DNA of 40,713 nucleotides from an uncultured Candidatus Saccharibacteria bacterium (GTDB lineage: Bacteria > Patescibacteriota > Minisyncoccia > Phycocordibacterales > EsbW-18): the NCBI GenBank assembly GCA_964634615.1, contig CAZWLQ010000004.1, forward strand, positions 730 through 41,442. Direction: 5' to 3'. Under the pieces are notes generated by a model that was not told the origin of the DNA, ran no database searches, and was given only the letters and a program-made list of their open reading frames with translations. How positions within the stretch are numbered: the stretch's first letter is position 1; every line of letters starts with the position of its first letter. Shown here in pieces: positions 11,998 to 37,804 of this stretch. A program made the translations under genes and the position numbers.

Positions 11998-12423
11998 ATG
12001 TACCAGATATTCGTCCAACCCATGGAGGGGAGGATCAGAGATTCTTGTGAAAGGAACGCTGTGCCGAGCGAACTCATAGCAAAAACACCTCAAGAACTTG
12101 GCTTCACCAACAATGTCCCTGTGAAGGAATTCCTTGCGCGCTGTGCGGAGAACGGACTATCTCTGCTTCCGGCTGAGGAAATGATTCAACTGGAGGAGGG
12201 TAGTAGGGCTTACTGTGGTATGACTTACCTCCTTAGTGGCCCACTTCAAGGGCCCAATGCTTCGGAGCCATTCATTGTCCGTAGGTTCGAAGAAGGGCGT
12301 TGCGAGGATTTCTTTGTCGTGAACTTGCCGGAGATCTACCCATCCTGGAAGGTTCCTCTCCTCTGGACCTTCTTGCTCCGGATTACCCCCTTGGAGAATG
12401 GTCGGCAGGAGTCCTGGGAGTAG
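11998..12423 (+). CDS. hypothetical protein (141 aa), no recognisable family
   Basis: Open frame with about one third G-starting codons, which is coding-like. It has its own promoter-like sequence and a strong terminator. AGG/AGA/CGG/GGG/CTG codons are essentially absent from the sampled rpoB codons. The start is ambiguous (11998 or 12022). An antisense ORF, 12157..12681, also stays open. Confidence 0.45.
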   Translation: MYQIFVQPMEGRIRDSCERNAVPSELIAKTPQELGFTNNVPVKEFLARCAENGLSLLPAEEMIQLEEGSRAYCGMTYLLSGPLQGPNASEPFIVRRFEEGRCEDFFVVNLPEIYPSWKVPLLWTFLLRITPLENGRQESWE

Positions 12424-13306: not shown

Positions 13307-13346
13307 TCGCGAATATCTGCGAATAGAGACGCGAATGCACGCAAAT
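13307..13346 (+). repeat. four phased GCGAAT-like boxes
   Basis: GCGAAT at 13309, 13319 and 13331, and GCAAAT at 13341. Spacing is 10, 12 and 10 nt. They lie between the nuclease stop (13304) and the terminator. Confidence 0.55.
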
Positions 13347-13380
13347 AAAAACACCGACCTTTTGAGAGGCCGGTGTTTTT
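13347..13380. terminator. bidirectional rho-independent terminator between convergent genes
   Basis: AAAAACACCGACC (13347-13359) pairs with GGCCGGTGTTTTT (13368-13380) with one mismatch. The A-run and T-run flanks allow function on both strands. Confidence 0.75.
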
Positions 13381-13393
13381 GCTACAGAGTTAA

Positions 13394-14086
13394 TTACTGT
13401 GTTACCGATCCATCATCTGCCAAGATCGTGTCAATGACTTGCTTCACCACATCATATGGCTGTGCGCCGTTGATTGGGAAGGTATCGCCATCCTTGGTGA
13501 GGATGATGCTGTACGGTGTGCCACGGCCACCTGCTTTAAGTGCTGCGTCACCATCGGCCTTCACGCGTGCTGCAAAGGTCTTTGCGGCGATACAACTATC
13601 GAGCGCTGTTCTATTAACGCCAAGTGTTGCCGCAATTGTTCCAAGCTCTGCGCCCGTCTCTGTTCCAGAAAAGAGTGTCGCGAGATATTTCCAGTACACA
13701 TCGTTACCCGCAAGTGATGCGACACATTCAGCACTCTCTGCCTTGAGGCGTGCTTCAGGGTGGAGCTGATCAAGCGGAAAGTTGCGGTAGACCCATGATA
13801 CATTTCCGGTCTTGCCGTATTCGTCAACGATACGCTGCATCGTTGCATGAAAGTCCTTACAAAACGGGCAATCGATATCAGAGTATTCGATGATTGTAAT
13901 GGGTGCGTTTGGGCTACCAAGAACGTGGTCAGCCGCTGATACTGGGGCGACGACGATTTCGTCCGGAGTGCCATCATCGTTCACATCCGGGGCAGCGTCT
14001 TTTGATTTGAAGAAGACTGCGCCTGCAACGAGGGCTCCCGCAACCAAAATCGCAATCGGGATAAGCATTTTGTTCTCTTGTTCCAT
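13394..14086 (-). CDS. membrane-anchored DsbA-family thiol:disulfide oxidoreductase
   Basis: N-terminal transmembrane helix MLIPIAILVAGALVAGAVFF. Thioredoxin-fold CxxC site in IIEYSDIDCPFCKDFH. Confidence 0.88.
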   Translation of the reverse strand: MEQENKMLIPIAILVAGALVAGAVFFKSKDAAPDVNDDGTPDEIVVAPVSAADHVLGSPNAPITIIEYSDIDCPFCKDFHATMQRIVDEYGKTGNVSWVYRNFPLDQLHPEARLKAESAECVASLAGNDVYWKYLATLFSGTETGAELGTIAATLGVNRTALDSCIAAKTFAARVKADGDAALKAGGRGTPYSIILTKDGDTFPINGAQPYDVVKQVIDTILADDGSVTQ

Positions 14087-14193
14087 ACGATAGCTTTTAG
14101 GAATAAATAAACCTGATAGATACTACGCCATAGAGTGTACCATGGGGGAAAAGTGCTGCGAATGGGCGTGGTACACTAGACCATATAGCGCAT

Positions 14194-14994
14194 ATGAGTA
14201 TTTTTGAAGGTATTTTGTTGGGTCTGACACAGGGATTAACCGAGTTTTTGCCGGTCTCATCAACCGGCCACTTGATTATTGTTCGTCAGCTTCTTGGTCT
14301 CCATGACCCTTCAGGGATCTTTTTTGACGCGGTGCTCCACTTGGCGACACTTTTGGCGGTCGCACTCTATTTCAGGCGAGATATTGGAGCGCTTGTCATG
14401 ACCGCGTGGAAATACATTCGTCGCAAACCGCTCGATGAGAATGAAAAAAACTTTTTCCTCGCGATTGTACTCGGGACGATTCCTGCGATTATCCTCGGAC
14501 TCATTTTTGAAGATGCAATCAGTACGTCAGCGCGAAGCACGATGGTTGTTGCGTGGGGCTTGGTCATCGGCTCGATTGTGATGTTTGCTGCAGAACGTCA
14601 TGTGAGGACCGACGCACAGGTGCAGGTGACACCTCGTCTTGGCTGGCGCCTTGGACTATTTCAGGCGTTCGCCCTCTTTCCTGGCATCTCTCGTTCGGGC
14701 AGTACGATTTCAGGAGGACTTTTTTCTGGCATGACACGCTCTGATGCAACACGGTTTGCTTTTGTGCTCTCATTTCCAATTCTCCTTGGTGCAGGAAGTG
14801 TGTCGGCGCTTGAGCTTTTTAAAGCGCCACTACTTCATGTGTCAGCATCGCTCGTTGCCGCATTCATAACCGCTCTTGTTTCAGCATTTATCGCGATTCA
14901 TTTCCTTCTCAAATTTGTACGTACACGAACCCTGCACCCATTCATTTGGTATCGGCTGATTCTCGCTGCGCTCCTCTTTTTCTTTCCGTTTTAA
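14194..14994 (+). CDS. uppP: undecaprenyl-diphosphate phosphatase
   Basis: LTEFLPVSSTGHL and PGISRSGSTISGG signature motifs. A polytopic hydrophobic protein of 266 aa. Confidence 0.95.
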   Translation: MSIFEGILLGLTQGLTEFLPVSSTGHLIIVRQLLGLHDPSGIFFDAVLHLATLLAVALYFRRDIGALVMTAWKYIRRKPLDENEKNFFLAIVLGTIPAIILGLIFEDAISTSARSTMVVAWGLVIGSIVMFAAERHVRTDAQVQVTPRLGWRLGLFQAFALFPGISRSGSTISGGLFSGMTRSDATRFAFVLSFPILLGAGSVSALELFKAPLLHVSASLVAAFITALVSAFIAIHFLLKFVRTRTLHPFIWYRLILAALLFFFPF

Positions 14995-16869: not shown

Positions 16870-16896
16870 GTGGCTCTAGTGTACGGAAATTTCGGG

Positions 16897-16926
16897 AAAT
16901 AGAAAAGGCCTCGCCGAAGCGAAGCC
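16897..16926 (-). terminator. rho-independent terminator about 30 nt upstream of the hisS ATG
   Basis: On the - strand, GGCUUCGC-UUCG-GCGAGGCC (8 bp including one G.U, UUCG tetraloop) is followed by UUUUCUAUUU. Confidence 0.7.
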
Positions 16927-17179
16927 CTATGACCGAACTGACCGTGTGGTCAGGGAAGTAAGAACTGCATACGCGCGTCGGTTGAAACGGTTTCCCGTCT
17001 CGTCGTGTTTTAAACGGCTCTCAGAGGCTTCACGACACCGTTTTTGCAGGTCGAACTTCGTCTTGACGAAGCTCGACTCAACGCCTTGTTCAAGGAACCA
17101 CCCCCTCAGCAAGCTCTCCTAGGAGGCAACTGCCGCTCCGATCAGGAGGACAAAAGAGGATGAACCCAACGCACGTACC
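16897..17179 (-). ncRNA. roughly 280-nt structured RNA: hisS leader/attenuator or independent sRNA, class unassigned
   Basis: Promoter at 17213-17186 and terminator at 16926-16897. A 12-bp long-range helix pairs UACGUGCGUUGG (17177-17166) with CCGACGCGCGUA (16981-16970). An 11-12-bp apical hairpin sits at 17076-17051. A GNRA hairpin GAGACGG-GAAA-CCGUUUC sits at 17001-16984, and CUGACC-ACAC-GGUCAG at 16952-16937. Only a 61-aa track ORF (16927..17112, -) falls here, and it has no coding support. Confidence 0.55.
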
Positions 17180-17185
17180 AAAAAC

Positions 17186-17213
17186 ACTCTACTCCCCCTC
17201 TCTTAATAGTCAA
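17186..17213 (-). promoter_or_regulatory. sigma70-type promoter candidate
   Basis: On the - strand: TTGACT (17213-17208), 16-nt spacer, TAGAGT (17191-17186). It starts 4 nt after the priA stop. The predicted +1 is near 17179. Confidence 0.45.
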
Positions 17214-17216
17214 CTC

Positions 17217-19240: not shown

Positions 19241-20593
19241 ATGACAGAATCACTTGATTTCAAAGTAGAAGGTGGCCGAAAGCTTAAGGGCACCATCGCA
19301 ACCAATTTTTCAAAAAATGGCTCCGTCGTTCTTATTTGTGCGGCATTACTCAATAAGGGTGTTACGCGACTTCACGGCATCTCGAGGATCGAAGAAGTAA
19401 ATCGATTGCTCGAGATTATCAAGAGCATTGGCGTACAGGTTTCCTGGATTGACAAGAACAGTATCGAGATCGTTCCTCCGAAAAAATTCAAAATGAATCA
19501 TCTGGACAAAGACGCTGCTGCGAAAGTGCGCTCAAGTCTTATGTTCATCGGCTCACTGATTCATCATCTCCCCCAATTTAAACTCCCGCATGCGGGTGGG
19601 TGCAAAATGGGAAACCGAACGATTGCTGCGCATCGCTACGGGCTCGAAGAGCTCGGAGTAAAGATTGCCACCAAGGAATCTCATTACGAAATTTCGACAA
19701 AGAAACTGAAGCCCGCAGATATTGTGATGTATGAGGCCGGCGATACTGCGGCCAACAATCTTTTGATGGCGGCCGCTCTTATCCCAGGAACGACAATCAT
19801 TCGATTTGCACCTCCGAACTATCAGGTACAAGAGCTGTGTTTTTTCCTTGAAACAATGGGTGTGCGGATTGAGGGCATTGGCACAACGACACTCACCGTG
19901 CATGGCATCAAAAGCTTCAATGCACCTCTTGAGTACACCAACAGTGAAGATCCAATCGAATCGATGATGTTTATCTCTGCTGCGATTACCACAAACTCAA
20001 GACTCACGATCACGCGCGCACCGATTGACTTTCTCTCCGTTGAACTTCTGAAGCTTGAAAAGATGGGATTGAAATACAAAAAGAGCAAGCGATATAAATC
20101 GTACAACGGTCGCACCGATTTGGTTGATCTTACAGTCATGCCATCAAAACTTTCTGCTGTGTCAGACAAGATTCATGCATTGCCGTATCCCGGTATCAAT
20201 ACCGATAACCTTCCGTTTTTTGTGCCGATTGCGACGCAAACCGACGGGGTAACGCTTGTTCACGATTGGATGTGGGAGAATCGTGCCATTTATTTCACCG
20301 AACTCAATCGACTTGGAGCAAATGTGCTTCTCGCTGATCCACATCGCGTATTCGTTACGGGAAAGACAAAGCTTAAAGGCGCACAGGTGGTCTGTCCGCC
20401 AGCACTTCGCCCCGCGATGATTATCCTGATTGCGATGCTTGCGGCAGAAGGCACGTCAATACTTCGAAATGTCTACTCCATCAATCGTGGCTATGAAGAA
20501 ATCGCTTTACGTCTGAACTCAATCGGTGCACACATCGAGGTGTTGCACAGTGCGTACGAGCGGTTGAAAAAGGCCTCAAAAACGGTACGATAG
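19241..20593 (+). CDS. murA: UDP-N-acetylglucosamine 1-carboxyvinyltransferase
   Basis: Enolpyruvyl-transferase architecture. N-terminal VEGGRKLKGTI..SKNGSV, and the active-site Cys loop HAGGCKMGNRTIAAH. Confidence 0.85.
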   Translation: MTESLDFKVEGGRKLKGTIATNFSKNGSVVLICAALLNKGVTRLHGISRIEEVNRLLEIIKSIGVQVSWIDKNSIEIVPPKKFKMNHLDKDAAAKVRSSLMFIGSLIHHLPQFKLPHAGGCKMGNRTIAAHRYGLEELGVKIATKESHYEISTKKLKPADIVMYEAGDTAANNLLMAAALIPGTTIIRFAPPNYQVQELCFFLETMGVRIEGIGTTTLTVHGIKSFNAPLEYTNSEDPIESMMFISAAITTNSRLTITRAPIDFLSVELLKLEKMGLKYKKSKRYKSYNGRTDLVDLTVMPSKLSAVSDKIHALPYPGINTDNLPFFVPIATQTDGVTLVHDWMWENRAIYFTELNRLGANVLLADPHRVFVTGKTKLKGAQVVCPPALRPAMIILIAMLAAEGTSILRNVYSINRGYEEIALRLNSIGAHIEVLHSAYERLKKASKTVR

Positions 20594-20599
20594 TGAGGC

Positions 20600-21616
20600 A
20601 TGTTTAAGATCTTCTCCAAAAAACTCGGCATTGACCTTGGTACTGCGAACGTCCTTGTCTTTGTGCCGGGTAAGGGAATTGTCTTAAATGAACCGTCGGT
20701 TGTTGCGGTCTCCGAATCTGACAACAAAATCCTTGCGATTGGTGTCGAGGCAAAGCGCATGATTGGAAAAACGCCAGACGATATCATTGCGTATCGTCCA
20801 ATGAAAGATGGTGTGATTGCGGACTACCGTGTCACCGAAGCAATGCTCCGCTACTTCATGGACAAGGCGTTGGGTCGTTGGAGTATTTTTAAACCAGACG
20901 TCTTGATTTCAGTGCCTGCGGGTGTTACCTCAACCGAGCGACGCGCAGTGGTCGAGGCAGCAATCAAAGCAGGTGCAAAGCAGGCGTACGTCATCAAGGA
21001 GCCAATTCTCGCAGCGATTGGTGCAGGCATTCCTATCCACGACCCAGAAGGGCACATGATTGTTGATATCGGCGGCGGCACCACAGATGTCGCAGTGATT
21101 TCCCTCGGCGGTATCGTGACGTGTACATCGGTTAAAGTTGCGGGGAATAAAATTGATCAAGCGATTGTTGATTACATCAAAAAAAATTACAACCTCTCAA
21201 TCGGCGAGAAGACCGCAGAGGATATCAAAATTAAGATTGGTTCTGCGGTGCCTGTCGAAGAGGAGCTTTCAATGACCGCAAAGGGTCGCGACTTGGTGAC
21301 AGGCCTTCCACGCGAAATGGAAATCAAAACCAACGAGGTGGTGAAGGCGATTCGAAAGGAGCTGCGTGAAATGGTCCGCGCGATTAAAGATGTTTTCCAA
21401 GAAACACCGCCCGAGCTCGCTGCTGATATCATCGGCAAAGGCATGATGATGACCGGCGGAACATCGCAGCTCCGCAACCTTCCCGAATTGATGTTCCGTG
21501 CAACCGGCGTTCCTGCTCGTTTGGCGGACGAGGCACTCTTTTGTGTGGTCAAAGGAACCGGTATTGCGCTTGAGCACCTGGACACCTACAAGAAATCGAT
21601 TATCGCGAAACGCTAG
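20600..21616 (+). CDS. mreB: rod shape-determining actin homologue MreB
   Basis: GIDLGTANVLVF, DIGGGTTDVAVISLGG and MTGGTSQLRNL. Confidence 0.95.
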   Translation: MFKIFSKKLGIDLGTANVLVFVPGKGIVLNEPSVVAVSESDNKILAIGVEAKRMIGKTPDDIIAYRPMKDGVIADYRVTEAMLRYFMDKALGRWSIFKPDVLISVPAGVTSTERRAVVEAAIKAGAKQAYVIKEPILAAIGAGIPIHDPEGHMIVDIGGGTTDVAVISLGGIVTCTSVKVAGNKIDQAIVDYIKKNYNLSIGEKTAEDIKIKIGSAVPVEEELSMTAKGRDLVTGLPREMEIKTNEVVKAIRKELREMVRAIKDVFQETPPELAADIIGKGMMMTGGTSQLRNLPELMFRATGVPARLADEALFCVVKGTGIALEHLDTYKKSIIAKR

Positions 21617-23032: not shown

Positions 23033-23536
23033 ATGAACTCTCAAGAAAATCAAACACGAACACTCCGTATCACCGTTGGTATCGCTATTCTCGTTGTTGT
23101 TGTCGGTGCTATTTGGTACATGACACGATCGTCCGGAGACGATTTTGAGTTTAACGCTGCAACAACGACACGCTCTGGAGATGATACTCGTGCTATCGCG
23201 GGACAAAGCCAAAACATCATCGTGTACGCACCGCGAATGAATGAGCGTGTTGGAACACCAGTGATTGTTGAAGGTGAAGCCCGTGTATTTGAGAATGTGG
23301 TGAATTACCGACTTGTTGATGCAAATGGCAAAGAACTTGCAGAAGGGTTTGCAACTGCAGATGCTCCTGACATAGGACAATTCGGTGCATTCCGTGGCGA
23401 ATTGAATTATGTATCAAATGCTGATCAGAAAGGAACCGTCGAAATCTTCTGGTATTCGGCAAAAGACGGTTCAGAAGTTGATAAAGTCACTATTCCCGTA
23501 ACGATTACCAAGACACCTGAATTCATCAAGGGGTAA
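23033..23536 (+). CDS. membrane-anchored Gmad2-type immunoglobulin-like domain protein
   Basis: Transmembrane anchor ITVGIAILVVVVGAIWY. IIVYAPRMNERVGTPVIVEGEARVFENVVNYRLVDANGKELAEGFATA...GAFRGEL matches the Gmad2 pattern as I recall it. Confidence 0.7.
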   Translation: MNSQENQTRTLRITVGIAILVVVVGAIWYMTRSSGDDFEFNAATTTRSGDDTRAIAGQSQNIIVYAPRMNERVGTPVIVEGEARVFENVVNYRLVDANGKELAEGFATADAPDIGQFGAFRGELNYVSNADQKGTVEIFWYSAKDGSEVDKVTIPVTITKTPEFIKG

Positions 23537-23537
23537 G

Positions 23538-23578
23538 TGCGAACAGAACGCAAGCAATCTCGCGAATTAACGCGAATA
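23538..23578 (+). repeat. four phased GCGAAT-like boxes
   Basis: GCGAAC at 23539, GCAAGC at 23550, GCGAAT at 23562, GCGAAT at 23572. Spacing is 11, 12 and 10 nt. They lie between the stop (23536) and the terminator. Confidence 0.55.
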
Positions 23579-23582
23579 AAAC

Positions 23583-23611
23583 AAAAAGGCCTTATTTAAA
23601 AGGGTCTTTTT
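23583..23611 (+). terminator. rho-independent terminator
   Basis: AAAAAGGCC (23583-23591) pairs with GGTCTTTTT (23603-23611), including one G.U. The loop is 11 nt. Confidence 0.6.
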
Positions 23612-23639
23612 GCTACGGAAAGAAAGTGATGAGAGGGTA

Positions 23640-23667
23640 TTGACAAATAAATTGCGGGCGCTATAAT
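23640..23667 (+). promoter_or_regulatory. near-consensus sigma70 promoter
   Basis: TTGACA (23640-23645), 16-nt spacer, TATAAT (23662-23667). This is the best promoter match in the window. Confidence 0.75.
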
Positions 23668-23673
23668 ACGCCC

Positions 23674-24032
23674 AGGAAGCTGCCCGGATGCACCGGCCAA
23701 CAGCTATCCGCGCGGAGATCAACTCGATGATGCGGAACCAGTTCACCTAAACGTAACGCCGGCGCGACAAGAGGCTGCCATAGCCAAGCGGTGGAGCAAC
23801 CAGCGGGCAATTGCTCGGAAGACGGTTGTTGCACCGTGAACAAACGATGGAAGAGCGCGTAGTAGGGATCGTCGGCCGAAGCACGCGTGGCGAGTTAACC
23901 CTCTCCCGTAATTGCCGAGTCACCATTGCCACCATCGTGCAGTAAGCAAGTGCGCGAGCCGTTCTCTCTCGAGCGCGACTCCCAGCTTGTGAACACCCCC
24001 TCCGGACTTCGGTTCGGGGGGATTTTCTTTTT
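23674..24032 (+). ncRNA. roughly 360-nt G+C-rich structured RNA, class unassigned
   Basis: It runs from the predicted +1 to a C5/G6 hairpin plus UUUUCUUUUU (23996-24032). There is no + strand ORF of 60 aa or more. 5' AAGCUG (23677-23682) pairs with CAGCUU (23983-23988). Verified local helices include 23684-23696, 23773-23785, 23794-23816, 23789-23836 and 23844-23872. Confidence 0.65.
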
Positions 24033-24038
24033 GCTACA

Positions 24039-24716
24039 ATGCCTCTCATGACCCCCGCAAAACTCCTCGAGCGAAAGAAACGATTCATTGCCTTCAACAA
24101 GGTTTTAAAGAAACTCTACCCTGAAGCAAAAATTGCCCTCAATTTCAAAAATAACTGGGAGCTTCTGGTTGCGGTTGAACTCTCTGCTCAATGCACTGAT
24201 AAAAAAGTGAATGAAGTCACCGCAACGCTTTTCAAAAAGTACAAAACACTCGACGATTACGTGAACGCAACGTTTGAGGAGTTCTCTCAAGATATCCGTC
24301 AAACCGGTTTTTTCAATAACAAGGCAAAGAATATTCTCGCGGCTGCCAAAATGGTTCGCGATCAATTTAAAGGAAAACTTCCAAAGACGATGGGGGAGAT
24401 ACTTACAATCCCTGGTGTTGCTCGGAAGACCGGCAACGTGGTGCTTGGAAATGCATACGGAGTCGTCGAAGGCATCGCGGTTGATACCCATATCAAACGC
24501 TTTTCACAAAAGTTTGATTTAACCGATCATAAAGACCCCGTAAAAATCGAACGCGATTTGATGGAGATTATTCCAAAAGATGAATGGTTTGGTTTTACGT
24601 ACCGCTTGATTGATTATGGCCGCGCTATTTGCAAAGCAAACCAACACGATTGTGCAGAGCACCCACTCACAAAAATCTACCCGAAAGCAGCGCATGTCTG
24701 GCCGAAAGCGAGATAA
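24039..24716 (+). CDS. nth: endonuclease III (HhH-GPD DNA glycosylase/AP lyase)
   Basis: LLVAVELSAQCTDKKVN, the HhH-GPD segment LTIPGVARKTGNVVL, and VDTHIKR. ATG 24048 is an alternative start. Confidence 0.9.
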   Translation: MPLMTPAKLLERKKRFIAFNKVLKKLYPEAKIALNFKNNWELLVAVELSAQCTDKKVNEVTATLFKKYKTLDDYVNATFEEFSQDIRQTGFFNNKAKNILAAAKMVRDQFKGKLPKTMGEILTIPGVARKTGNVVLGNAYGVVEGIAVDTHIKRFSQKFDLTDHKDPVKIERDLMEIIPKDEWFGFTYRLIDYGRAICKANQHDCAEHPLTKIYPKAAHVWPKAR

Positions 24717-24810
24717 ACCCATCTGAAAATCTGGGTTCCCGAGGCAAAGACGAGCATTCCGCAGTTCACGTAGAACGACTGTAGCCAGGGAGGGGTTTTC
24801 AGATGGGTTT
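24715..24810. repeat. 15-bp perfect inverted repeat with 66-nt spacer
   Basis: AAACCCATCTGAAAA (24715-24729) and TTTTCAGATGGGTTT (24796-24810). The left arm starts inside the nth stop codon. Confidence 0.8.
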
Positions 24811-24832
24811 AAATCAGTACACTTGAGGCGAT

Positions 24833-26107
24833 ATGAGGTATCCAACGCCTAAACGAAGCATTCTAAAAAACGGCATTCGTCTCATCACGATTCCTATGCC
24901 GACCTCTCCAACAGTTACAGTGACCGTACTCGTTGAGGCGGGTTCGCGTTACGAGACAAAACAAGACAATGGGCTCTCTCACTTCCTTGAGCACATGTGC
25001 TTTAAGGGCACCACAAAGCGCCCGACATCTGCCATTATCACCCGCGAACTCGAGATGATTGGCGCCGAATATAACGCGTTCACCGGTGAAGAAATGACTG
25101 GCTATTGGGCAAAAGCTCGCACGAAGCACTTCGACGACATTCTTGATGTGGTATCAGACATTTACCTCGATCCACTGTTGCCGGAAGTCGAGCTTGAAAA
25201 AGAGCGTGGCGTGATTATCGAAGAAATCAATATGTACGAAGATCTTCCACAGCGGAAGGTTCACGATGTACTTGACGAACTGATGTACGGTGACCAGCCA
25301 GCAGGTCGCTCCGTCATTGGACCAAAAGAAAACATTAGGCGTTTTGCTCGCGCCGATTTCGTCCGCTATCGAGATCTCCACTACGTTGGAACAAAAACAG
25401 CCATCATAATCGCAGGCGGTTTTAGCAATACAGAGATGGTTGCGCACGCAAAGAAATATTTTAGTACTGCACGAAAAGGAAAAGGTGGTATGCGTCGGCG
25501 CACAAAAGAAAAGCAAGCTACACCTGCACTCCTGCACAAAGAGAAGGCAACCGACCAGACACATTTTGTGCTGGGTTTCAGAAGCTATCCGCTTCGCGAT
25601 AAGCGACAAATGACACTTCGCCTGCTTGCGGCGGTTCTTGGTAAAGGAATGAGCTCTCGTCTTTTTTTGAAGCTCCGTGAAGAGATGGGTGTGTGTTATT
25701 ACGTTCGCGCGAATCAAGAAAGCATGACCGACACCGGTGTGTTTAAAATTTCTGCAGGTCTCGACAGCACGCGTGTCGAAGAGGTCATCGAGGCAATTAT
25801 TGATGAGGCACAGAAACTTCGCGATGTTCCGGTATCACTCGACGAACTCACGAAAGTAAAAGAAATGATTATTGGTGCAATCGCAATGGGTCTTGAAACA
25901 TCAGATCAGGTCGCTGATTGGTATCACGATGAGATACTTCGCCAACCACTGAAAACTCCCGCGGAAATCGTCAAGGAAATTCAGGCGGTAACGCCAGCTC
26001 AGATTCAAAAAGTGGCACAAGATATCTTTGTGAACAAAAAATTGAATCTCGCGCTCGTAGGACCGAAGCGTAATCTTACACAACTTAAAAAAGTTGCACG
26101 CCTATGA
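24833..26107 (+). CDS. M16-family (pitrilysin/insulinase-like) zinc peptidase
   Basis: HxxEH zinc site in GLSHFLEHMCFKGTTKR. 424 aa, with no signal peptide. Confidence 0.9.
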   Translation: MRYPTPKRSILKNGIRLITIPMPTSPTVTVTVLVEAGSRYETKQDNGLSHFLEHMCFKGTTKRPTSAIITRELEMIGAEYNAFTGEEMTGYWAKARTKHFDDILDVVSDIYLDPLLPEVELEKERGVIIEEINMYEDLPQRKVHDVLDELMYGDQPAGRSVIGPKENIRRFARADFVRYRDLHYVGTKTAIIIAGGFSNTEMVAHAKKYFSTARKGKGGMRRRTKEKQATPALLHKEKATDQTHFVLGFRSYPLRDKRQMTLRLLAAVLGKGMSSRLFLKLREEMGVCYYVRANQESMTDTGVFKISAGLDSTRVEEVIEAIIDEAQKLRDVPVSLDELTKVKEMIIGAIAMGLETSDQVADWYHDEILRQPLKTPAEIVKEIQAVTPAQIQKVAQDIFVNKKLNLALVGPKRNLTQLKKVARL

Positions 26108-27897: not shown

Positions 27898-29117
27898 TGA
27901 AAGCATCCTACCAGCCACCACAAAAAATACTTGAACGGTACGCTGATGTGCTGGTCAACTTTGCACTGAATGACGGCAAGGGAATCACAAAAGGTCAAAC
28001 GGTTTTGATTGTCATTTCTGAATCTGCCCGCCCGCTTCTTGTTGAGCTCCGAAAAGCAATCACTAAAGCTGGTGGCAATATCATCCTCAAATATATTCCA
28101 AGTGACGAGGCACGCTATTCGTTTTCGAGAGATTTCTACATGTATGCAAAGGGTAGCCAGCTCACCTATGCTCCACAAAAGTATTTTGCAGGCATGGTAA
28201 GCGATACAGATCACGTACTCACGGTCTTGAGTGAAGATCCAAAAGGACTTAAAGGATTGCCGGCAGAAAAGATCAGCACGCACACCCAAGCACTTGCACA
28301 ACTGCGAAACGAATATAGGAAAAAAGAGAACGTAGGAAAACTTACGTGGACATTAGCGCTCTACGCAACGCCCGAACAGGCAAAAGAAGCAGGGCTCTCC
28401 CTTAAGGCATATTGGGAGCAGATAATCCGAGCATGTTTTTTGGATACTCCAAACCCAATCGCACGATGGAAAGAGACGTTCAACAAGATCCATGCGTATC
28501 GAAAGGCCTTGAGCAAACTCCCGATTAAAAGTCTCCATGTTAAAGGCGCCGATGCGGATTTGATCGTGACGCTTGGAGACTCGCGCATGTGGCTCGGCGG
28601 AGGAGGACACAACATCCCTTCGTTCGAGATATTCACGAGCCCCGACTGGCGCGGTACCGAAGGCTGGATTCGTTTCAACCAACCGCTCTTTTATTTGGGC
28701 AACAAAATCACCGGTATCGAACTGTGGTTTGAAAAAGGTCGTGTTGTTAAAAGCCGTGCAAAAACCAATCAAGCACTGCTTCACAACATGATTGCATCAA
28801 AAGATGCCGACAAGGTTGGTGAGTTTTCTCTCACCGACAAACGATTTTCGCGTATCGAAAAGTTCATGGCACATACGCTTTTTGATGAAAATGTGGGAGG
28901 TGCACATGGCAACACACACATCGCACTTGGTATGGCGTACAAAGAGGCCTACACCGGTGATATCAAAAAGGTGACTCCAAAGAAATGGAAAGAGCTTGGC
29001 TTCAATGACTCAACGGTGCACACAGATATCATCTCAACAGCGCCACGCACCGTGACAGCAACCCTGAAGAACGATACCAAAAAAGTGATTTATAAAAACG
29101 GCATGTTTACGCTATAG
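27897..29117 (+). CDS. M29-family aminopeptidase (AmpS/PepS/aminopeptidase T-like)
   Basis: N-terminal LERYADVLVNFALN..GQTVLI, C-terminal FDENVGGAHGNTHIALG and TVHTDI. TAATG overlap with pepF. Confidence 0.85.
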   Translation: MKASYQPPQKILERYADVLVNFALNDGKGITKGQTVLIVISESARPLLVELRKAITKAGGNIILKYIPSDEARYSFSRDFYMYAKGSQLTYAPQKYFAGMVSDTDHVLTVLSEDPKGLKGLPAEKISTHTQALAQLRNEYRKKENVGKLTWTLALYATPEQAKEAGLSLKAYWEQIIRACFLDTPNPIARWKETFNKIHAYRKALSKLPIKSLHVKGADADLIVTLGDSRMWLGGGGHNIPSFEIFTSPDWRGTEGWIRFNQPLFYLGNKITGIELWFEKGRVVKSRAKTNQALLHNMIASKDADKVGEFSLTDKRFSRIEKFMAHTLFDENVGGAHGNTHIALGMAYKEAYTGDIKKVTPKKWKELGFNDSTVHTDIISTAPRTVTATLKNDTKKVIYKNGMFTL

Positions 29118-29129
29118 TCGAGGGTATCT

Positions 29130-30998
29130 ATGCATTCATCAGAGATTCGAAAGAAATACCTCGATTTTTTCGCCGCTCGTGGGCACGCGATTGTGCCGTC
29201 AGCTCCGCTTGTGCCACAGAATGACCCGACAACGCTCTTCACGGGCTCGGGTATGCAGCCAATGATTCCGTATCTTTTGGGTGAAAAACACCCGCTTGGC
29301 ACGCGCGTCGCTGATTCACAGAAGTCGTTCCGTGCTGAAGACATTGAAGAAATAGGCGATAACCGTCACACAACATTCTTCGAGATGCTTGGTAACTGGA
29401 GTTTCGGCGATTATTTCAACAACGAACAAATCCGATGGATGTCAGAATTCCTCTTTGATGAGATTGGTATCGACCCAAACAAACTCTACGTAACGGTCTT
29501 TAGTGGGGACGAGAAGAACAACCTCCCAAAAGACACTGACTCTGCAGAATTATGGAAGAAGATTTTTGCTGAAAAGGGTATTGATGCCTCCATTGTTGAG
29601 ATTGGAAGTGAGGCCAATGGTGGGGAAGTTGGTATGCAGGGCGGCCGCATATTCTATTACGAAGCTAAGAAAAACTGGTGGAGCCGTGCTGGTGTGCCAG
29701 ATAAAATGCCCGTCGGTGAACCAGGAGGTCCCGATTCCGAGATGTTTTATGAATTTTCTGATATCGAGCACGATCCGAAATTCGGAAAGCAGTGCCACCC
29801 AAACTGCGACTGCGGACGATATCTCGAAATCGGCAATAACGTCTTCATGACATACAAGAAGGTCGGCGAAGGAAAGTTTGAGCTTCTTCCAAATAAGAAT
29901 GTTGATTTTGGAGGAGGACTGGAGCGCATGACTGCAGCATCGAATAACGACGCGGATGTTTTCACGATTGATGTTTTTGCTTCCATCATCGGAACACTCG
30001 AGGAGCTTTCCGGTAAACGTTATTCGGATAAAACCCACACCGCATCATTTCGCATCATCGCAGATCATATTCGCGCGTCAGTGTTTCTCATTGGTGATGG
30101 AGTAATCCCCTCAAACACCGAGCAGGGATACTTTGTTCGCCGACTCCTACGCCGTGCAATCCGCTATTGGGACAAGCTTGGCATCGCGGGCGAAGGTTTG
30201 GCACAGCTCGTGAATCCTATTGCTGATTGCTACCAAGACTCATACCCAGAACTTGCTTCAAAGAAAGTTGAGATCACTGAAGAAATCAAAAAAGAAGAGG
30301 AGCGGTTCCGTCAGACGCTTGAACGCGGACTCAAGGAGTTTGAAAAGATTCCTATCGGCGCAATTTCTGCAGCTCAATCCTCGATGCTCTACCAATCATA
30401 TGGTTTCCCTTTCGAACTCATCGAAGAATTGGCAAAAGAAAAGGGCAGTACCGTAAGCCGTATCGAATTTGATGAGGAAATGAAGAAGCACCAGGAGCTC
30501 TCACGTGCGGGTTCGGAGCAAAAGTTCAAAGGCGGGCTTGGTGACACCAGTGAGATGTCGCTTCGATACCACACCGCAACACATCTTTTGAACGCAGCGC
30601 TTAAGCGCGTGCTTGGTGCGCATGTAAAGCAGCGGGGAAGCAACATCACACCGGAGCGTCTTCGATTCGACTTTTCTCACCCGGCCAAAGTAACCGACGA
30701 AGAAAAAGAAAAGATTACGATGCTCATGAACGAATGGATATCAAAAGGATTGGTGGTCACCCGTCGCGAGATGCCTCGTAATGAAGCGGAGAAACTTGGT
30801 GCAGAAATGGAGTTCGGTGCAAAATATCCTGATATCGTTTCTGTCTACACCATCGAAGATACCGACGGCTCACCGATTAGTATGGAATTCTGTGGCGGTC
30901 CGCATGTCGAGAACACAAAAGTTCTCGGTACGTTCAAGATTGCAAAGGAGGAAGCATCGTCCGCGGGTGTCCGGAGAATAAAAGCGGTTTTGTCTTAA
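29130..30998 (+). CDS. alaS: alanine--tRNA ligase, short form ending after the editing domain
   Basis: RHTTFFEMLGNWSFGDYF, LEIGNNVFMTY and VDFGGGLERM in the catalytic core. HTATHLL and CGGPHV form the editing-site HxxxH/CxxxH pair. It ends at ...SSAGVRRIKAVLS. Confidence 0.93.
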   Translation: MHSSEIRKKYLDFFAARGHAIVPSAPLVPQNDPTTLFTGSGMQPMIPYLLGEKHPLGTRVADSQKSFRAEDIEEIGDNRHTTFFEMLGNWSFGDYFNNEQIRWMSEFLFDEIGIDPNKLYVTVFSGDEKNNLPKDTDSAELWKKIFAEKGIDASIVEIGSEANGGEVGMQGGRIFYYEAKKNWWSRAGVPDKMPVGEPGGPDSEMFYEFSDIEHDPKFGKQCHPNCDCGRYLEIGNNVFMTYKKVGEGKFELLPNKNVDFGGGLERMTAASNNDADVFTIDVFASIIGTLEELSGKRYSDKTHTASFRIIADHIRASVFLIGDGVIPSNTEQGYFVRRLLRRAIRYWDKLGIAGEGLAQLVNPIADCYQDSYPELASKKVEITEEIKKEEERFRQTLERGLKEFEKIPIGAISAAQSSMLYQSYGFPFELIEELAKEKGSTVSRIEFDEEMKKHQELSRAGSEQKFKGGLGDTSEMSLRYHTATHLLNAALKRVLGAHVKQRGSNITPERLRFDFSHPAKVTDEEKEKITMLMNEWISKGLVVTRREMPRNEAEKLGAEMEFGAKYPDIVSVYTIEDTDGSPISMEFCGGPHVENTKVLGTFKIAKEEASSAGVRRIKAVLS

Positions 30999-31084: not shown

Positions 31085-32203
31085 ATGCGTTTTTTTGAGC
31101 GCAGACAGCAATCAAAGAGCACCTTGTCAGTGATCCTTTCAAGCGATCATGTAGAACTTTCTATATTGCTCATATCGCCCGAACAGAAACCGAAGATTGT
31201 TTTTGCATCGAGTAAAAAGATTGAAAAAACCACCGCAGGAAAACCACTTTTGTCTCGATTGAATGAATCATTGACCGCGCTTTGCGACGAGACGCTTACG
31301 GAAGGCCTGACGCACATCGTTTCCCGTCGCGTAGCACATGGTCACTTTGATGCGATTCGGGTCTTTTATGGCTCACCGTGGTATGTCTCTCGAGGCCGCC
31401 AAATTTCTATTACCCGTTCAGCAAAAACTCCGCTTACTGAAAGCTCTCTTAAGGAAAGTATTGGCCAAGCTACCGTAGGACTGCTGCCACCAGAGATGAA
31501 GGACGCGGTTATTCTTGAAGAACACGCGCATGGGTTTACCGTGAATGGTTATCCCATTGAAAATCCAATAGGTGTGGCGGGTGAAGAAATCGGTATGCGC
31601 GTATTTGTCTCTGCGATTGATGCGGCAACAAAGAATGTTGTTGAGACCGCGCTTCATCGTGCATTTCATTCCCGTTCTCTCACGCATCACTCAACCGTGC
31701 TTCCAATCGCGGAGGTTCTCCATAAAACAGCAGCGATTAAAGACGCTTATTTTTTGGTTGATGTGTCAGCGCTTACTACAGAAGTATCGCGAATCGACCG
31801 TGGCATGGTCTTGGACACGATTTCGTTCCCTGAAGGTTTTGAAACACTCTCTCAAAAAGCCGCAAAAAGCATGAAGCGGCCCCACAGTGACATGCAAACG
31901 ATACAAAAGCGGCCAAACGATTTCGGATTGACCAAAGAATTTACAATAGCCCATGATGATGCGTTGGGAAATTGGTCAAGCGCGTACGCTGATGCCTTCG
32001 AAACACTGCAAGGCAATGGAATGCCTATCACGAATACAATTCTGATTGCTGATGCGCCAACTGCCGATGCTTTCAAGAGAGATATCGGCCGAATCAGTGG
32101 GACAAAAGTTCAAATTCTTTCATCAAAAAATTACGAGTCCCTCTATGATGCTGCGGCTCGAAGTGATGCGACAGCCGTCGGTGGCCTTCTTGCCCTTTCT
32201 TAA
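31085..32203 (+). CDS. hypothetical protein with a degenerate FtsA/PilM-like actin-fold pattern
   Basis: 372 aa. NGYPIENPIGVAGEEIGMRVFVSAID...YFLVDVSALTTEVSRIDRGMVLDTISFPEG parallels the FtsA/PilM block (..P.GM.G..LE..VH.. / VDIGGGTTD..V...G......P.GG). The phosphate-binding glycines are replaced. Confidence 0.7.
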   Translation: MRFFERRQQSKSTLSVILSSDHVELSILLISPEQKPKIVFASSKKIEKTTAGKPLLSRLNESLTALCDETLTEGLTHIVSRRVAHGHFDAIRVFYGSPWYVSRGRQISITRSAKTPLTESSLKESIGQATVGLLPPEMKDAVILEEHAHGFTVNGYPIENPIGVAGEEIGMRVFVSAIDAATKNVVETALHRAFHSRSLTHHSTVLPIAEVLHKTAAIKDAYFLVDVSALTTEVSRIDRGMVLDTISFPEGFETLSQKAAKSMKRPHSDMQTIQKRPNDFGLTKEFTIAHDDALGNWSSAYADAFETLQGNGMPITNTILIADAPTADAFKRDIGRISGTKVQILSSKNYESLYDAAARSDATAVGGLLALS

Positions 32204-32333
32204 ATACTCTAAAATTCCTGTAAAGAGGGGAAATCCTGCCCTGGACGTCCTCTTTTGTGCTACCATACAGGCACCTACCTTAAGCGGGAGGTTCATTACA
32301 GCAGGTATTGTCAACTTTTAGAATTATTTCACT

Positions 32334-33638
32334 ATGCAAGATCTCGTATCTCAGTCAGAGCGACGTTCGGTGAGAAACATTTCAATCGACCGTCCCCAAA
32401 CCAGTGGCGACAACCCATCAGAAAGCGTTTTTTCAAAAGACTCTGGACCATCATTCCCTCAGCGTCCCTCGTTCATGAAATCACGCGGACGCGGTAGCAA
32501 ACTTCCGTGGATTATCGGCGGCATTGTGATTGCCGTGGTCCTTATCTTTGTTATCGGCTCGATTTTTGCCGGCGCAACCGTAACGCTCACCCCTCGTTCA
32601 GCGCTCGTCAACTTGGACACTACCTTCACCGCATACCAAACACCGGCAGCGGGTTCTGTTGGCTTTGAAATCGTTTCTGTTGAAAAAGAGGCGACACGAA
32701 GCGTCACGGCAACGGGCGAAGAGCGCATCGAGCGCCCTGCGTCAGGAACAATCGTCATCTATAACAACTATGACGAAGACACCCAGAAATTGATCAAGAA
32801 CACCCGCTTTCAAACTACTGACGGTAAGATCTATCGTATCCAGGAGTCAATCACTGTTCCTGGTAAGCACAAGGACGCAACAGGTGCGATGGTTCCTGGC
32901 AGCATCGAGGCAACCGTATTCGCCGACAGCGCAGGCGAGTCCTACAACATCGGTCTCTCCGACTTCACGATTCCTGGCTTCAAGGAAAGCAATGACCCTC
33001 GCTACGATGGCTTCTACGCCCGTTCAAAGACCGAAATGACCGGCGGATTCTCTGGTACGGTGAAGACGGCATCTGCAGAAGACACCGAAAAGGCGGAAAA
33101 CGAGATGGAGGCAGAACTTTCAAGCGCACTGCTTGAAGAAGCGAAAACATCGCTCCCTGTGGAGTTTGTCTTGATGCCGGAGAGTGCAGAATATTCATTC
33201 ACCAATCTTCCAAACGCAACGGGAGATGACGGCATGGTTGTATTGAAGAGCAAGGGCACAATTCGTCTCTTGGCAATCAATAAAGATGCAATCGCACAAG
33301 TCGCAGCACTCGAGCGTGTATCAGGATACGCAGGAGAACCTGTTACCTTTGCAAACACCGAGGAATTGACATTTGAAATCGTAACCGATCCATTTGACCT
33401 CGCATCTGCAAGCTCAACAGACATTCGTGTAACTGGCCCAACAACCTTGGTTTGGACATTTGACACTGAAGCAATCGCAGCGGAGCTCGCGGGCAAGGCA
33501 CGAAGCGCGACAAAAGCAATCTTCAGCAAATACCCAGGCATCGAGAAGGCCGACGTGGTTATCCGTCCATTCTGGAAACGCTCGCTTCCAACCGAGAGTG
33601 CCGACATTACTGTGGCTGTAGAACAAGTAAAGGAGTAA
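32334..33638 (+). CDS. bitopic membrane protein with a large extracytoplasmic beta-rich domain, family unknown
   Basis: 434 aa. A disordered N-terminus is followed by one transmembrane helix (LPWIIGGIVIAVVLIFVIGSIFAG) and then about 350 aa of extracytoplasmic sequence. The AAGGAG for infA lies in its last codons. Confidence 0.75.
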   Translation: MQDLVSQSERRSVRNISIDRPQTSGDNPSESVFSKDSGPSFPQRPSFMKSRGRGSKLPWIIGGIVIAVVLIFVIGSIFAGATVTLTPRSALVNLDTTFTAYQTPAAGSVGFEIVSVEKEATRSVTATGEERIERPASGTIVIYNNYDEDTQKLIKNTRFQTTDGKIYRIQESITVPGKHKDATGAMVPGSIEATVFADSAGESYNIGLSDFTIPGFKESNDPRYDGFYARSKTEMTGGFSGTVKTASAEDTEKAENEMEAELSSALLEEAKTSLPVEFVLMPESAEYSFTNLPNATGDDGMVVLKSKGTIRLLAINKDAIAQVAALERVSGYAGEPVTFANTEELTFEIVTDPFDLASASSTDIRVTGPTTLVWTFDTEAIAAELAGKARSATKAIFSKYPGIEKADVVIRPFWKRSLPTESADITVAVEQVKE

Positions 33639-33640
33639 GC

Positions 33641-33877
33641 ATGACAGCAACCCCTAAAGGAGAAGTTGTAAAAGCAAGCGTGGTTGAGGCACTCGCAAAC
33701 GCCCATTTCCGCCTTGTATTGGATGTTCCTCTGGCAGAAGGAGAGACGAGAGAGCCCGTTATCGGCTATTTGGCAGGCAAAATGCGCCTGCACCGCATCC
33801 GTGTAATCGTCGGAGACACCGTTGAGGTACTTCTTGACCCGTACGGTGGCAAACCTCGCATCACCCGCCGACTCTAG
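33641..33877 (+). CDS. infA: translation initiation factor IF-1
   Basis: S1-like OB pattern GYLAGKMRLHRIRVIVGDTVEVLLDPY. 78 aa. Confidence 0.93.
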   Translation: MTATPKGEVVKASVVEALANAHFRLVLDVPLAEGETREPVIGYLAGKMRLHRIRVIVGDTVEVLLDPYGGKPRITRRL

Positions 33878-33890
33878 GCCTTCCTTAAAG

Positions 33891-33923
33891 AACGCTTGGG
33901 GACAGGGGTCTTGTGCGTTTTTT
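33891..33923 (+). terminator. weak terminator/attenuator after infA
   Basis: AACGC/GCGTT outer helix with an inner GGGAC-aggg-GTCTT helix (two G.U pairs), running into TTTTTT. Confidence 0.4.
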
Positions 33924-34018
33924 GGCTGCGTGTTACTATGGCAGCTCCACAAAGGGTAAACCCTCACAGGGTCGGTTATTTCTTTGCGCAGGTAGAGAAA
34001 CACCAAAAAACATACATT

Positions 34019-34132
34019 ATGAAAGTCAAATCCGCGGTCGAAAAACGATGCAACAAATGTAAGATGGTCCGCCGTGCGGGTCGCCTTCGCATCGTCTGTT
34101 CAAACCCTCGTCACAAGCAGCGTCAAGGCTAA
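34019..34132 (+). CDS. rpmJ: 50S ribosomal protein L36
   Basis: Internal ATG of ORF 33896..34132. [37 protein letters not shown] (37 aa, zinc-ribbon type). Confidence 0.92.
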
Positions 34133-34208
34133 AGACAAGAAACGAGGGTATAGGGTGTAGCCATGAGAGGCAAAGGAACACCCCAAACCCCGCAACACTA
34201 AAATTTCT

Positions 34209-34589
34209 ATGCGTATCGCAGGTATCACACTTCCAGACAATAAGCGCATGCCGTTTGCTCTCACATCGGTATACGGCATCGGTCGTGCTCGTGCACTCAA
34301 GGTTCTTGAGACTGCAAAAGTTGACGCAGCTAAGAAGCCAACCGACCTTTCAGAAGCAGAAGAAGGAGCAATCCGAAAGGCGCTCGAAGGGTACATTCTC
34401 GAAGGAGACTTGAAGCGTGAAGTATCAGGAAACATCAAGCGATTGAAAGACATCACAGCGAACCGTGGCATGCGTCACAGCAAGCGCCTCCCGGTCCGTG
34501 GCCAGCGCACCAAGACCAACTCTCGTACTGTTCGTGGCAACGTTCGCAAGACGATGGGTTCTGGTAAGCGTAAGGTTGAACTCAAATAA
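34209..34589 (+). CDS. rpsM: 30S ribosomal protein S13
   Basis: MRIAGITLPDNKRMPFALTSVYGIGRARA... Confidence 0.96.
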   Translation: MRIAGITLPDNKRMPFALTSVYGIGRARALKVLETAKVDAAKKPTDLSEAEEGAIRKALEGYILEGDLKREVSGNIKRLKDITANRGMRHSKRLPVRGQRTKTNSRTVRGNVRKTMGSGKRKVELK

Positions 34590-36661: not shown

Positions 36662-36687
36662 GTATTTAGAGCACTGATCAAAAGCTT

Positions 36688-37041
36688 ATGCGACACCACA
36701 ACGTCAACAGAAAATTCGGCCGCGAAAAGAAACCACGAGAAGCATTCATCCGCTCGCTCGCAAGCTCTTTGATCATGAAAGGAAAGATCTCAACAACGCT
36801 CCCACGAGCAAAAGAGATTCGCCCATTCGTTGAAAAGCTCGTTACCCGTGCAAAGAACCCAACACTCGCAAACACACGCATCCTCGTTACCCGTCTTGGA
36901 ACTGACGATATGCGTGTCAGCAAGAAGTTGATTGCGGTTGCAGAAGGATACAAGGGTCGCGCAGGAGGATACCTCCGCATCACAAAGACCGGTTTCCGCC
37001 AGGGCGACGCAGCACCAAAAGCAATCATTGAATTCGTATAA
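36688..37041 (+). CDS. rplQ: 50S ribosomal protein L17
   Basis: MRHHNVNRKFGREKKPREAFIRSL... Confidence 0.95.
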   Translation: MRHHNVNRKFGREKKPREAFIRSLASSLIMKGKISTTLPRAKEIRPFVEKLVTRAKNPTLANTRILVTRLGTDDMRVSKKLIAVAEGYKGRAGGYLRITKTGFRQGDAAPKAIIEFV

Positions 37042-37049
37042 ACAACCGT

Positions 37050-37391
37050 ATGATTACCATCGACGCACAAAACAAGAAGCTCGGACGACTCGCTAGCGAG
37101 GTCGCAATCCTCCTCATGGGTAAGGATCAGACCGATTTCGCACGAAACGCGATTCCTGACCGTGACATCAAGGTCATCAACGCGGACAAGCTCGCAATCG
37201 AGCCACGAAAACTTCTTGCAAAGGAGTACACAAGCTACACGGGTTACCCGGGTGGTTTGAAAACAGAGACCTTGGGTGCGTTGATCGCACGGAAGGGAGC
37301 GTCTGAAGCAATTAGGAAGGCAGTGCACGGCATGCTCCCAGGCAACAAGCTTCGCCCACGCATGATGAAGCACTTGATCATCGAAGCATAA
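37050..37391 (+). CDS. rplM: 50S ribosomal protein L13 (short N-terminus)
   Basis: LGRLASEVAILLMGK, VINADKLAI, YTGYPGG. Confidence 0.93.
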   Translation: MITIDAQNKKLGRLASEVAILLMGKDQTDFARNAIPDRDIKVINADKLAIEPRKLLAKEYTSYTGYPGGLKTETLGALIARKGASEAIRKAVHGMLPGNKLRPRMMKHLIIEA

Positions 37392-37396
37392 CTCAT

Positions 37397-37804
37397 ATGG
37401 CTACCACCGCATCAAAAAAATACATCGAGGCAATCGGACGTCGCAAACTCGCTATCGCACGTGTTCGCGTGACCTTCGGTACTGCAAAATCATCATTCAC
37501 CATCAACGACCGCCCACTCGATGAGTACTTTCCACTCAAAGACCACCAGATGATCGCTCGCGAAGCACTTGTGAAGACTGACAAAGCAAACGCAAGCGTT
37601 ACGGTGCAGGTTAAGGGTGGCGGAATCCACGCCCAGGCAGAGGCAATCCGCCTTGGTACCGCACGAGCACTTTTGGTTGAAGACCGCGAACTCCGCGCAA
37701 CCTTGAAGCCTGCTGGATACTTGCGACGTGACCCACGTATCGTTGAACGCAAGAAATTCGGTTTGAAGAAAGCTCGCAAGAGCCCACAATGGGCAAAGCG
37801 TTAA
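37397..37804 (+). CDS. rpsI: 30S ribosomal protein S9
   Basis: GRRKLAIARVRV, GGGIHAQAEAIRLGTARAL, RDPRIVERKKFGLKKARKSPQWAKR. Confidence 0.96.
   Translation: MATTASKKYIEAIGRRKLAIARVRVTFGTAKSSFTINDRPLDEYFPLKDHQMIAREALVKTDKANASVTVQVKGGGIHAQAEAIRLGTARALLVEDRELRATLKPAGYLRRDPRIVERKKFGLKKARKSPQWAKR

Follow-up and report, generated by a model that had tools for sequence, protein, structure and literature searches.

What occupies the 511 nucleotides (nt) between a Gmad2-domain gene (23033-23536) and nth in a 40,713-nt stretch of contig CAZWLQ010000004.1 (assembly GCA_964634615.1, uncultured Candidatus Saccharibacteria bacterium), the whole of which is called the window below? A first-pass annotation, made from the letters alone, had placed there a large structured RNA gene with its own promoter and terminator, and had proposed either a highly divergent housekeeping RNA or an undescribed class of RNA. 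The analysis reported here indicates that the non-coding RNA gene is probably real and strongly promoted, and that it falls outside all curated RNA families and most likely represents an undescribed one. Long-term selection appears to have kept a 5' domain of ~112 nt together with the transcription signals, and not a 360-nt end-clamped fold. We lean, tentatively, toward a stand-alone RNA of ~325-360 nt confined to a narrow Parcubacteria/Paceibacteria lineage.

The comparisons draw on related loci reached through the nth protein (82, later 108, with a total of 0.56 Mb); the close relatives of the window nth protein all belong to Patescibacteria of the Parcubacteria/Paceibacteria type. The RNA was found in two versions. 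Type A is shared by the window and loci L001, L002, L090, L091 (GCA_020050275.1) and L098, and type B, a homologous unit, occurs only in L088 (GCA_018061915.1), a species-level relative. The signals that delimit the gene in the window are as follows.

23640 to 23667, + strand: sigma-70-type promoter TTGACA-16-TATAAT, matching 12 of 12 consensus positions, its hexamers kept in relatives
23998 to 24032, + strand: intrinsic terminator found by a terminator scan, a 10-bp G+C-rich hairpin (23998-24021) followed by a T-tract

The promoter had been called the best in the window, and the promoter scan bears this out: it is the sole site with 12 of 12 matches on both strands, the runner-up reaching 11 of 12. 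The rpoD gene also lies within the window (Pfam). Both hexamers are the same in L088, L090 and L091, whereas 4 of the 16 spacer positions are changed in L088, where the discriminator has diverged as well. The hairpin and U-tract described earlier were recovered as a terminator, the outer stem and tail of which are kept in the L088 alignment; at 23995, 24013 and 24016, the variants found in L090 and L098 preserve or better the pairing (GUUCGG to GUCCGG), two of the substitutions improving it. Between the two signals lie ~325 nt of G+C-rich sequence without any credible open reading frame (ORF). The longest frame on the + strand has 44 amino acids (aa), in agreement with the earlier statement that none reaches 60, and the contrast in composition noticed at first reading is real, with a G+C content of 0.54-0.60 over 23600-24000 versus 0.39-0.48 in the flanks. 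The unit thus has its own promoter and terminator, kept in L088, L090 and L091, and overlaps no coding gene. From these signals we infer that it is transcribed, with a start near 23674 and ends as placed.

The block between the Gmad2-domain gene and nth is a presence/absence polymorphism and is lineage-specific. In L083, L086 and L100-L107, whose nth is 77-82% identical to that of the window, the Gmad2 stop codon and the nth ATG are separated by 3-12 nt, and in L087 (GCA_964478705.1) and L089 by a spacer of 106 nt with a single terminator; in L084 and L085, a HIT-family gene stands between the two genes. The RNA is thus missing from the Gmad2-nth junction of L083, L086, L087, L089 and L100-L107, a statement that concerns the junction and not the whole genomes. 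The type A loci, L088 and the L087/L089 pair were fetched as members of the 90%-identity nth cluster of the window, and any two of the three groups are separated by much the same distance (47-70% divergence at fourfold-degenerate sites). Since near relatives have only 3-12 or 106 nt between the genes, the 511-nt block is best regarded as lineage-specific rather than housekeeping, and the equal distances between groups with and without it make for a polymorphism that would be unexpected for RNase P RNA, transfer-messenger RNA (tmRNA) or signal recognition particle (SRP) RNA. That the spacer of L087 might be a deletion remnant of the RNA was considered and rejected, as no derivation could be recognized.

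Further searches did not widen this distribution. The first-pass annotation had proposed a search of relatives with nhmmer or blastn: run against the 82, later 108, loci, both programs returned homologues from the same species and from L088, and nothing beyond. A covariance model of the 5' domain brought nothing new from the 0.56 Mb of related loci, and no second copy of the block was found there or in the window. A blastn search of both versions against phages and plasmids gave just one terminator-like chance match. Among the 14 relatives with long spacers upstream of nth, those spacers held just two tRNAs, both in one locus. In L099, which belongs to a different lineage (the 82% nth cluster), a stretch of at least 170 nt with a G+C content of 0.57 stands before nth and does not represent the C-terminus of Gmad2 (L099:1-185); it is followed by a terminator and TACACT, and the contig ends there. 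The L099 insert might represent a third type of the RNA, with its 5' part out of view.

Comparison with L088 divides the RNA into a conserved 5' domain and a body. The features of the former are listed here, the hairpins being proposed ones.

23674 to 23785, + strand: conserved 5' domain with H1, H2, an unpaired linker and H3, delimited by comparison with L088, its start at ~23674 being inferred
23678 to 23705, + strand: proposed hairpin H1
23707-23711 with 23732-23736, + strand: basal stem of proposed hairpin H2, the distal part of which is replaced in L088
23739 to 23750, + strand: conserved unpaired linker stretch CAGUUCACCUAA, the same in both versions
23757 to 23772, + strand: conserved unpaired linker stretch CGCCGGCGCGACAAGA, the same in both versions
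23773 to 23785, + strand: proposed hairpin H3

Over 114 aligned columns (~112 nt), this domain is 83% identical between the window and L088, while fourfold-degenerate sites of nth and of the Gmad2 gene are 52-54% diverged and the spacer between nth and the M16 gene is 53% identical. All 19 differing columns fall outside the 36 paired columns of H1-H3; when the differences are pooled as ~9 events (our own grouping), the avoidance of paired columns has p ~0.03. The distal part of H2 is represented in L088 by a shorter, different loop. Both linker stretches are conserved, unpaired segments that might serve as seeds or binding sites; 23739-23750 is unpaired in the single-sequence minimum free energy (MFE) and centroid folds, some of which include pairs within part of 23757-23772.

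Downstream of this domain the two versions part company.

23786 to 23974, + strand: G+C-rich lineage-specific body (0.59 G+C), with no sequence relationship to its 237-nt counterpart in L088
23975 to 23986, + strand: short block GCGACUCCCAGC, which resembles GCGCCUCCCACAGC at the equivalent place of L088 in the alignment and holds the 3' arm of the previously proposed clamp

From 23786 on, 212 nt in the window and 237 nt in L088 cannot be aligned, and the likeness of GCGACUCCCAGC to GCGCCUCCCACAGC is short and could be due to chance. Both bodies are richer in G+C (0.59 in the window and 0.54 in L088) than the loci at large (0.47-0.49), and that of L088 is predicted to form four clean hairpins (z = -3.15; -4.38 for the whole L088 RNA). 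The body differs between lineages and is held constant within a lineage: it is invariant among the window, L090, L091 and L098, where neutral flanking sites differ. Thus, 0 of 324 nt differ between the window and L091, and a single difference, an indel at the edge of the terminator, separates the window from L090, whereas non-coding flanks and third codon positions of nth differ by ~3-5% within type A. Of the neutral-type flanking sites, 13 of 442 differ, which yields a Fisher p of ~1e-3 for L091; for L090, p is ~3e-3 by our own estimate, with the recombinant upstream spacer excluded. The spacer that follows the Gmad2 gene (23545-23580) carries short tandem CGCGAAT(T/A)AA units. L090 (140-200) has a different sequence in its place, with three CGCAGAT units, next to an identical RNA, and this swap suggests that a local recombination event had its breakpoint immediately 5' of the -35 box.

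These observations can be accommodated, at a confidence that falls somewhat short of an even chance, by a lineage-restricted, stand-alone non-coding RNA gene that acts via its conserved 5' domain and carries a lineage-specific structured body. Transcription would start from the consensus sigma-70 promoter and stop at the intrinsic terminator of the gene itself, and long-term selection would maintain the first ~112 nt, i.e., two hairpins, an unpaired linker of ~36 nt and a small third hairpin. This domain would be the working part, acting in trans either by pairing via 23739-23750 and 23757-23772 or by binding a protein, and the G+C-rich, hairpin-prone body of ~210-240 nt might be a structural, stabilizing or specificity module. 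Although new, such an RNA belongs to a well-known general class. Bacterial regulatory small RNA (sRNA) genes likewise have their own sigma-70 promoter and intrinsic terminator, unrelated housekeeping neighbors and a narrow range, and their pattern of conservation, in which the 5' region and the terminator are kept and the middle varies, recurs here; in contrast, the window RNA (~325-360 nt) exceeds typical sRNAs three- to fourfold in length, and its long, G+C-rich variable part does not change within a lineage. No Hfq or ProQ partner was seen in the window, where no search aimed at one was made. A more daring and rather doubtful extension of the stand-alone reading is that of a modular RNA, in which a conserved 5' 'handle' is joined to a long, type-specific body that selection would keep constant within a lineage, yet that is swapped for unrelated sequence in a sister lineage and missing in others, in the manner of idiomorphs. 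If true, it would be no ordinary sRNA but a specificity-determining RNA (a guide, a decoy or a recognition module) in host-dependent bacteria.

Several results weigh against the stand-alone reading. The MFE of 23674-24032, -128.1 kcal/mol, equals that of dinucleotide shuffles (-127.9 +/- 4.9; z = -0.04), the antisense strand having z = +0.82, and when the parts are taken separately z is +0.38 for the 5' 112 nt and -0.89 for the remainder. The complementary strings listed in the first-pass annotation do occur at their positions, but the picture of a structured RNA packed with helices does not hold against shuffled sequences. Nor do its ends appear to be clamped: the AAGCUG/CAGCUU pairing lies outside the MFE and centroid structures, in which AGCUG pairs locally with CAGCU at 23701-23705, and it is reduced to 4 bp in L088, the sole divergent homologue. 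For the helices proposed 3' of 23786 and for the pseudoknot, L088 offers no alignable counterpart from which support could come, and of the ~360-nt end-clamped RNA once envisaged, both versions share no more than the first ~112 nt and the region of the terminator. No compensatory base-pair change was seen anywhere between the only two distinct versions found, types A and B, so that the proposed secondary structure is not demonstrated by covariation. In the window, sequences complementary to the conserved stretches are no more frequent than expected by chance, and no target or partner was identified. Exact-pattern scans of Joint Genome Institute (JGI) metagenome contigs, with a 22-mer and with a conserved 20-mer (the first metagenome pattern overlapped a variable site), gave chance matches within coding genes, as did scans of viral contigs. 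The conservation of the body is itself open to another explanation. Within type A, the comparisons are small in number and depend on one another, the 58% identity of the L090 upstream spacer marks a mosaic locus, and the difference-free tract extends 146 nt into nth; recent exchange or recombination of a cassette, rather than selection, could therefore account for part of it.

The placement of nth bears on how the RNA relates to its downstream neighbor.

24035 to 24050, + strand: -10-like box TACAAT (24035-24040) of nth and its probable start ATG at 24048, not part of the RNA

The listed start of nth is the ATG at 24039 (225 aa), which TACAAT overlaps. Because the nth proteins of relatives have 222 aa, the true start is probably the ATG at 24048; TACAAT then sits 7 nt before it, and TACACT is found at the equivalent place in L087, L088 and L099. 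The RNA had been said to abut nth without a spacer, whereas the corrected start would leave room for a -10-like box of nth in a leaderless layout, which explains why the RNA terminator seems to run into the gene. Most window genes similarly have no Shine-Dalgarno sequence and show a -10-like box (TACACT, TACGAT, TATAGT, TAGAAT or TAAAAT) 6-9 nt before the ATG, which suggests that leaderless mRNAs are widespread in this organism. Examples lie at 14170-14196, 20577-20602, 24810-24835, 29108-29132 and 32310-32336.

The possibility that the block encodes a highly divergent RNase P RNA, tmRNA, SRP RNA or 6S RNA was one of the two offered at first, and size, a promoter resembling those of stable RNAs (16-nt spacer and G+C-rich discriminator) and G+C enrichment fit it. 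Patescibacteria, or candidate phyla radiation, are reported to include RNase P RNAs that came to light only below the noise cut-off of Rfam, and a true member might thus fall below the thresholds of that database (Lui et al., 2021; PMC8172020). Searches with Rfam 15 nevertheless left little room for this reading. No family matched the window at the gathering score, and at E<=10 region 23540-24100 gave nothing relevant, just irrelevant flank matches of 12-16 bits, with zero matches for both the RNA body (23668-23998) and the L088 version; the proposed Rfam scan thus confirmed that there is no recognizable family. ARAGORN found neither tmRNA, with its tRNA-like domain and tag frame, nor tRNA in the window, and Rfam gave no tmRNA match either; SRP RNA and 6S RNA models matched neither version. 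The predicted fold is a string of local hairpins with the end pairing outside the MFE structure, unlike the 6S rod with its central bubble. As for RNase P, models RF00010 and RF00011 matched neither version at the gathering score or at E<=10, and the CR-I (GGAAAGUCC-like), CR-V (ACAGAA..GGCUUA) and helix P4 motifs are not in the sequence, as the first-pass annotation had already reported for CR-I, CR-V and tmRNA motifs. When aligned to Escherichia coli M1 RNA, the RNA was equaled or exceeded by 288 of 300 shuffles in local and 108 of 300 in global mode. A likeness to the RNase P S-domain seen by eye (GUAACGCC, GAGCAA, AAGAGCGC and GUUAAC in the same order) was likewise ruled out by shuffle statistics. 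Bacterial RNase P RNA, its divergent patescibacterial forms included, does resemble the window RNA in size range, G+C enrichment and strong promoter, and the 5' GAAGCUG/3' CAGCUU pair recalls helix P1; what the window RNA does not share is the CR-I/CR-V/P4 core, a covariance-model match or similarity above shuffles. Moreover, the closest relatives examined do not have it at the homologous junction, and over two-thirds of its length no alignment is possible between lineages that share 91% identity in the nth protein. We know of no housekeeping RNA that is two-thirds unalignable between such close lineages, and this reading has become very unlikely. A better case, although still an improbable one, can be made for a cis-regulatory leader, a riboswitch or attenuator whose 5' domain would control read-through into nth and the downstream peptidase genes. 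The order of promoter, long untranslated RNA, strong terminator and gene is that of attenuation leaders such as riboswitches and T-boxes, and the conserved domain has the size of an aptamer. However, the -10-like box of nth, which argues against a riboswitch or attenuator, lies 7-8 nt before the ATG in genomes with and without the RNA, relatives keep the same nth without any such leader, and a 370-nt leader would be a poor template for translating nth among window genes that look leaderless. More than 200 unconserved nt lie between the conserved domain and the terminator, and no antiterminator was found: pairing of upstream segments or the H2 loop with the 5' strand of the terminator did not exceed shuffles or cross-version combinations. 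In neither version does the variable H2 loop pair with the terminator better than chance, and an antiterminator of this kind was rejected.

The remaining explanations turn on the origin and the coding capacity of the block, and the first of them concerns the following features of its borders.

23582 to 23616, + strand: terminator-like hairpin (inverted repeat I2) and T-tract ending the upstream Gmad2-domain gene, overlapping direct repeat D1
23605 to 23616, + strand: left copy of D1, TCTTTTTGCTAC, in the tail of the Gmad2-gene terminator
24026 to 24037, + strand: right copy of D1, TCTTTTTGCTAC, in the tail of the RNA terminator, degenerate in L088

The Gmad2-gene terminator region is 78% conserved in sequence in L088. 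The exact 12-nt direct repeat TCTTTTTGCTAC thus stands at the tails of both terminators and brackets 421 nt, with ~0.02 such repeats expected by our own estimate, and is a possible vestige of the origin of the block. The repeat favors the next most likely reading after a stand-alone RNA, although an unlikely one, namely that the block is inserted or recombining DNA without function at the RNA level, a mobile or foreign remnant that carries a strong promoter by chance and owes its similarity between genomes to recent exchange. Presence or absence at one junction among loci with nth at least 90% identical (L087 and L089 without; the window and L088 with), a G+C content of 0.54-0.59 versus 0.47-0.49 for the genome, the mosaic left flank of L090 and the different G+C-rich insert upstream of nth in L099 speak for it as well. 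On the other hand, the conservation is patchy in a functional manner, with perfect hexamers next to a diverged spacer and discriminator, and with stems untouched where loops have changed. Neutral sites of the flanking genes are close to saturation between the window and L088, and the block is therefore not young. Of the marks of a miniature inverted-repeat transposable element or insertion sequence, only the direct repeat is present: terminal inverted repeats (repeat search), extra copies (window and related loci) and a transposase (Pfam, ORFs scanned) were not found, nor were there matches in phages or plasmids. An invertible promoter, suggested by an 11-nt inverted repeat (23626-36/24042-52), was rejected, since 800 nt should contain ~2-3 such repeats by chance (own estimate) and nth itself includes one of the arms.

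A sponge RNA of the CsrB/RsmZ type, which would sequester a protein through repeated CGGA/GGA motifs and otherwise evolve fast, is quite improbable in spite of a similar length (~350 nt), the promoter and terminator layout and the rapid divergence outside a small core. Across the two versions, CGGA is the tetramer with the strongest excess (11 versus 4.2 expected, uncorrected p = 0.003), a possible short repeated motif, but significance is lost once all 256 tetramers are corrected for, and part of the count is the shared 5' domain taken twice. Unlike in CsrB/RsmZ-type RNAs, the motifs do not all lie in loops, at least one GGA site sitting, by eye, in a stem of the L088 folds; the L099 insert has no CGGA, and Pfam scans revealed no CsrA-like gene or partner in the window. 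Least probable of all is a protein-coding function, whether of a small sense peptide or of the 117-aa antisense ORF at 23747-24100. Antisense ORFs of 117 aa in the window and 124 aa in L088 do span the same stretch, and downstream of an AGGAAG motif there is a sense ORF of 20 aa. The antisense frames, however, differ relative to the conserved DNA at the end of H3, their lengths are reached by 30% and 7% of shuffles, and the ORF has no Pfam match and no homologue, whether genuine or called in error, among 5.8 billion word-indexed proteins or 1.84 billion representative proteins (full HMMER). The small sense peptide keeps neither its frame nor its length in L088, and the genome of the window makes no use of Shine-Dalgarno sequences.

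Elsewhere in the window, Pfam identified trmD, dnaG, rpoD, hisS, priA, a murA-like gene, mreB, a holB-like gene, alaS, rpsK, rpsD, rpoA, grpE and dnaK; the neighbors of the RNA gene are housekeeping genes, and no reverse transcriptase, transposase or Cas-like partner was found among the ORFs scanned. Two further ORFs (1060 and 1223 aa, 1862-8727), outside the set scanned, are by size and position probably rpoB and rpoC. Seven window ORFs of 123-372 aa had no Pfam match at E<=0.001 (912-1331, 11998-12423, 13335-13769, 31085-32203, 34100-34471, 36678-37373 and 37393-37779). Five more intergenic stretches of 350-530 nt, with a G+C content of 0.45-0.53, have no Rfam match at the gathering score (1332-1861, 13770-14193, 16870-17216, 33639-34099 and 37780-38224); the first of them lies upstream of the 1060-aa ORF (1862-5044, probably rpoB) and has a 10/12 promoter match at 1642. 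Just downstream of nth in some relatives, on the opposite strand, there is a 125-aa 23S_rRNA_IVP gene with a faint bAvd match (L101:2015-2392, L102:1185-1562 and L084:1055-1435), which is not found in the window.

Patescibacteria have tiny genomes with few recognizable regulators, and, to our knowledge, almost nothing is known about their regulatory RNAs. The practical value of the present finding is modest, its support so far consisting of two sequence versions, and it serves as a reminder that a big, G+C-rich and well promoted RNA need not be a housekeeping one. A strongly promoted RNA of ~350 nt that is present in some and absent from other near relatives, with a conserved 5' domain and a lineage-specific body that add to its appeal, would offer a tractable entry point to the regulatory RNAs of Patescibacteria.

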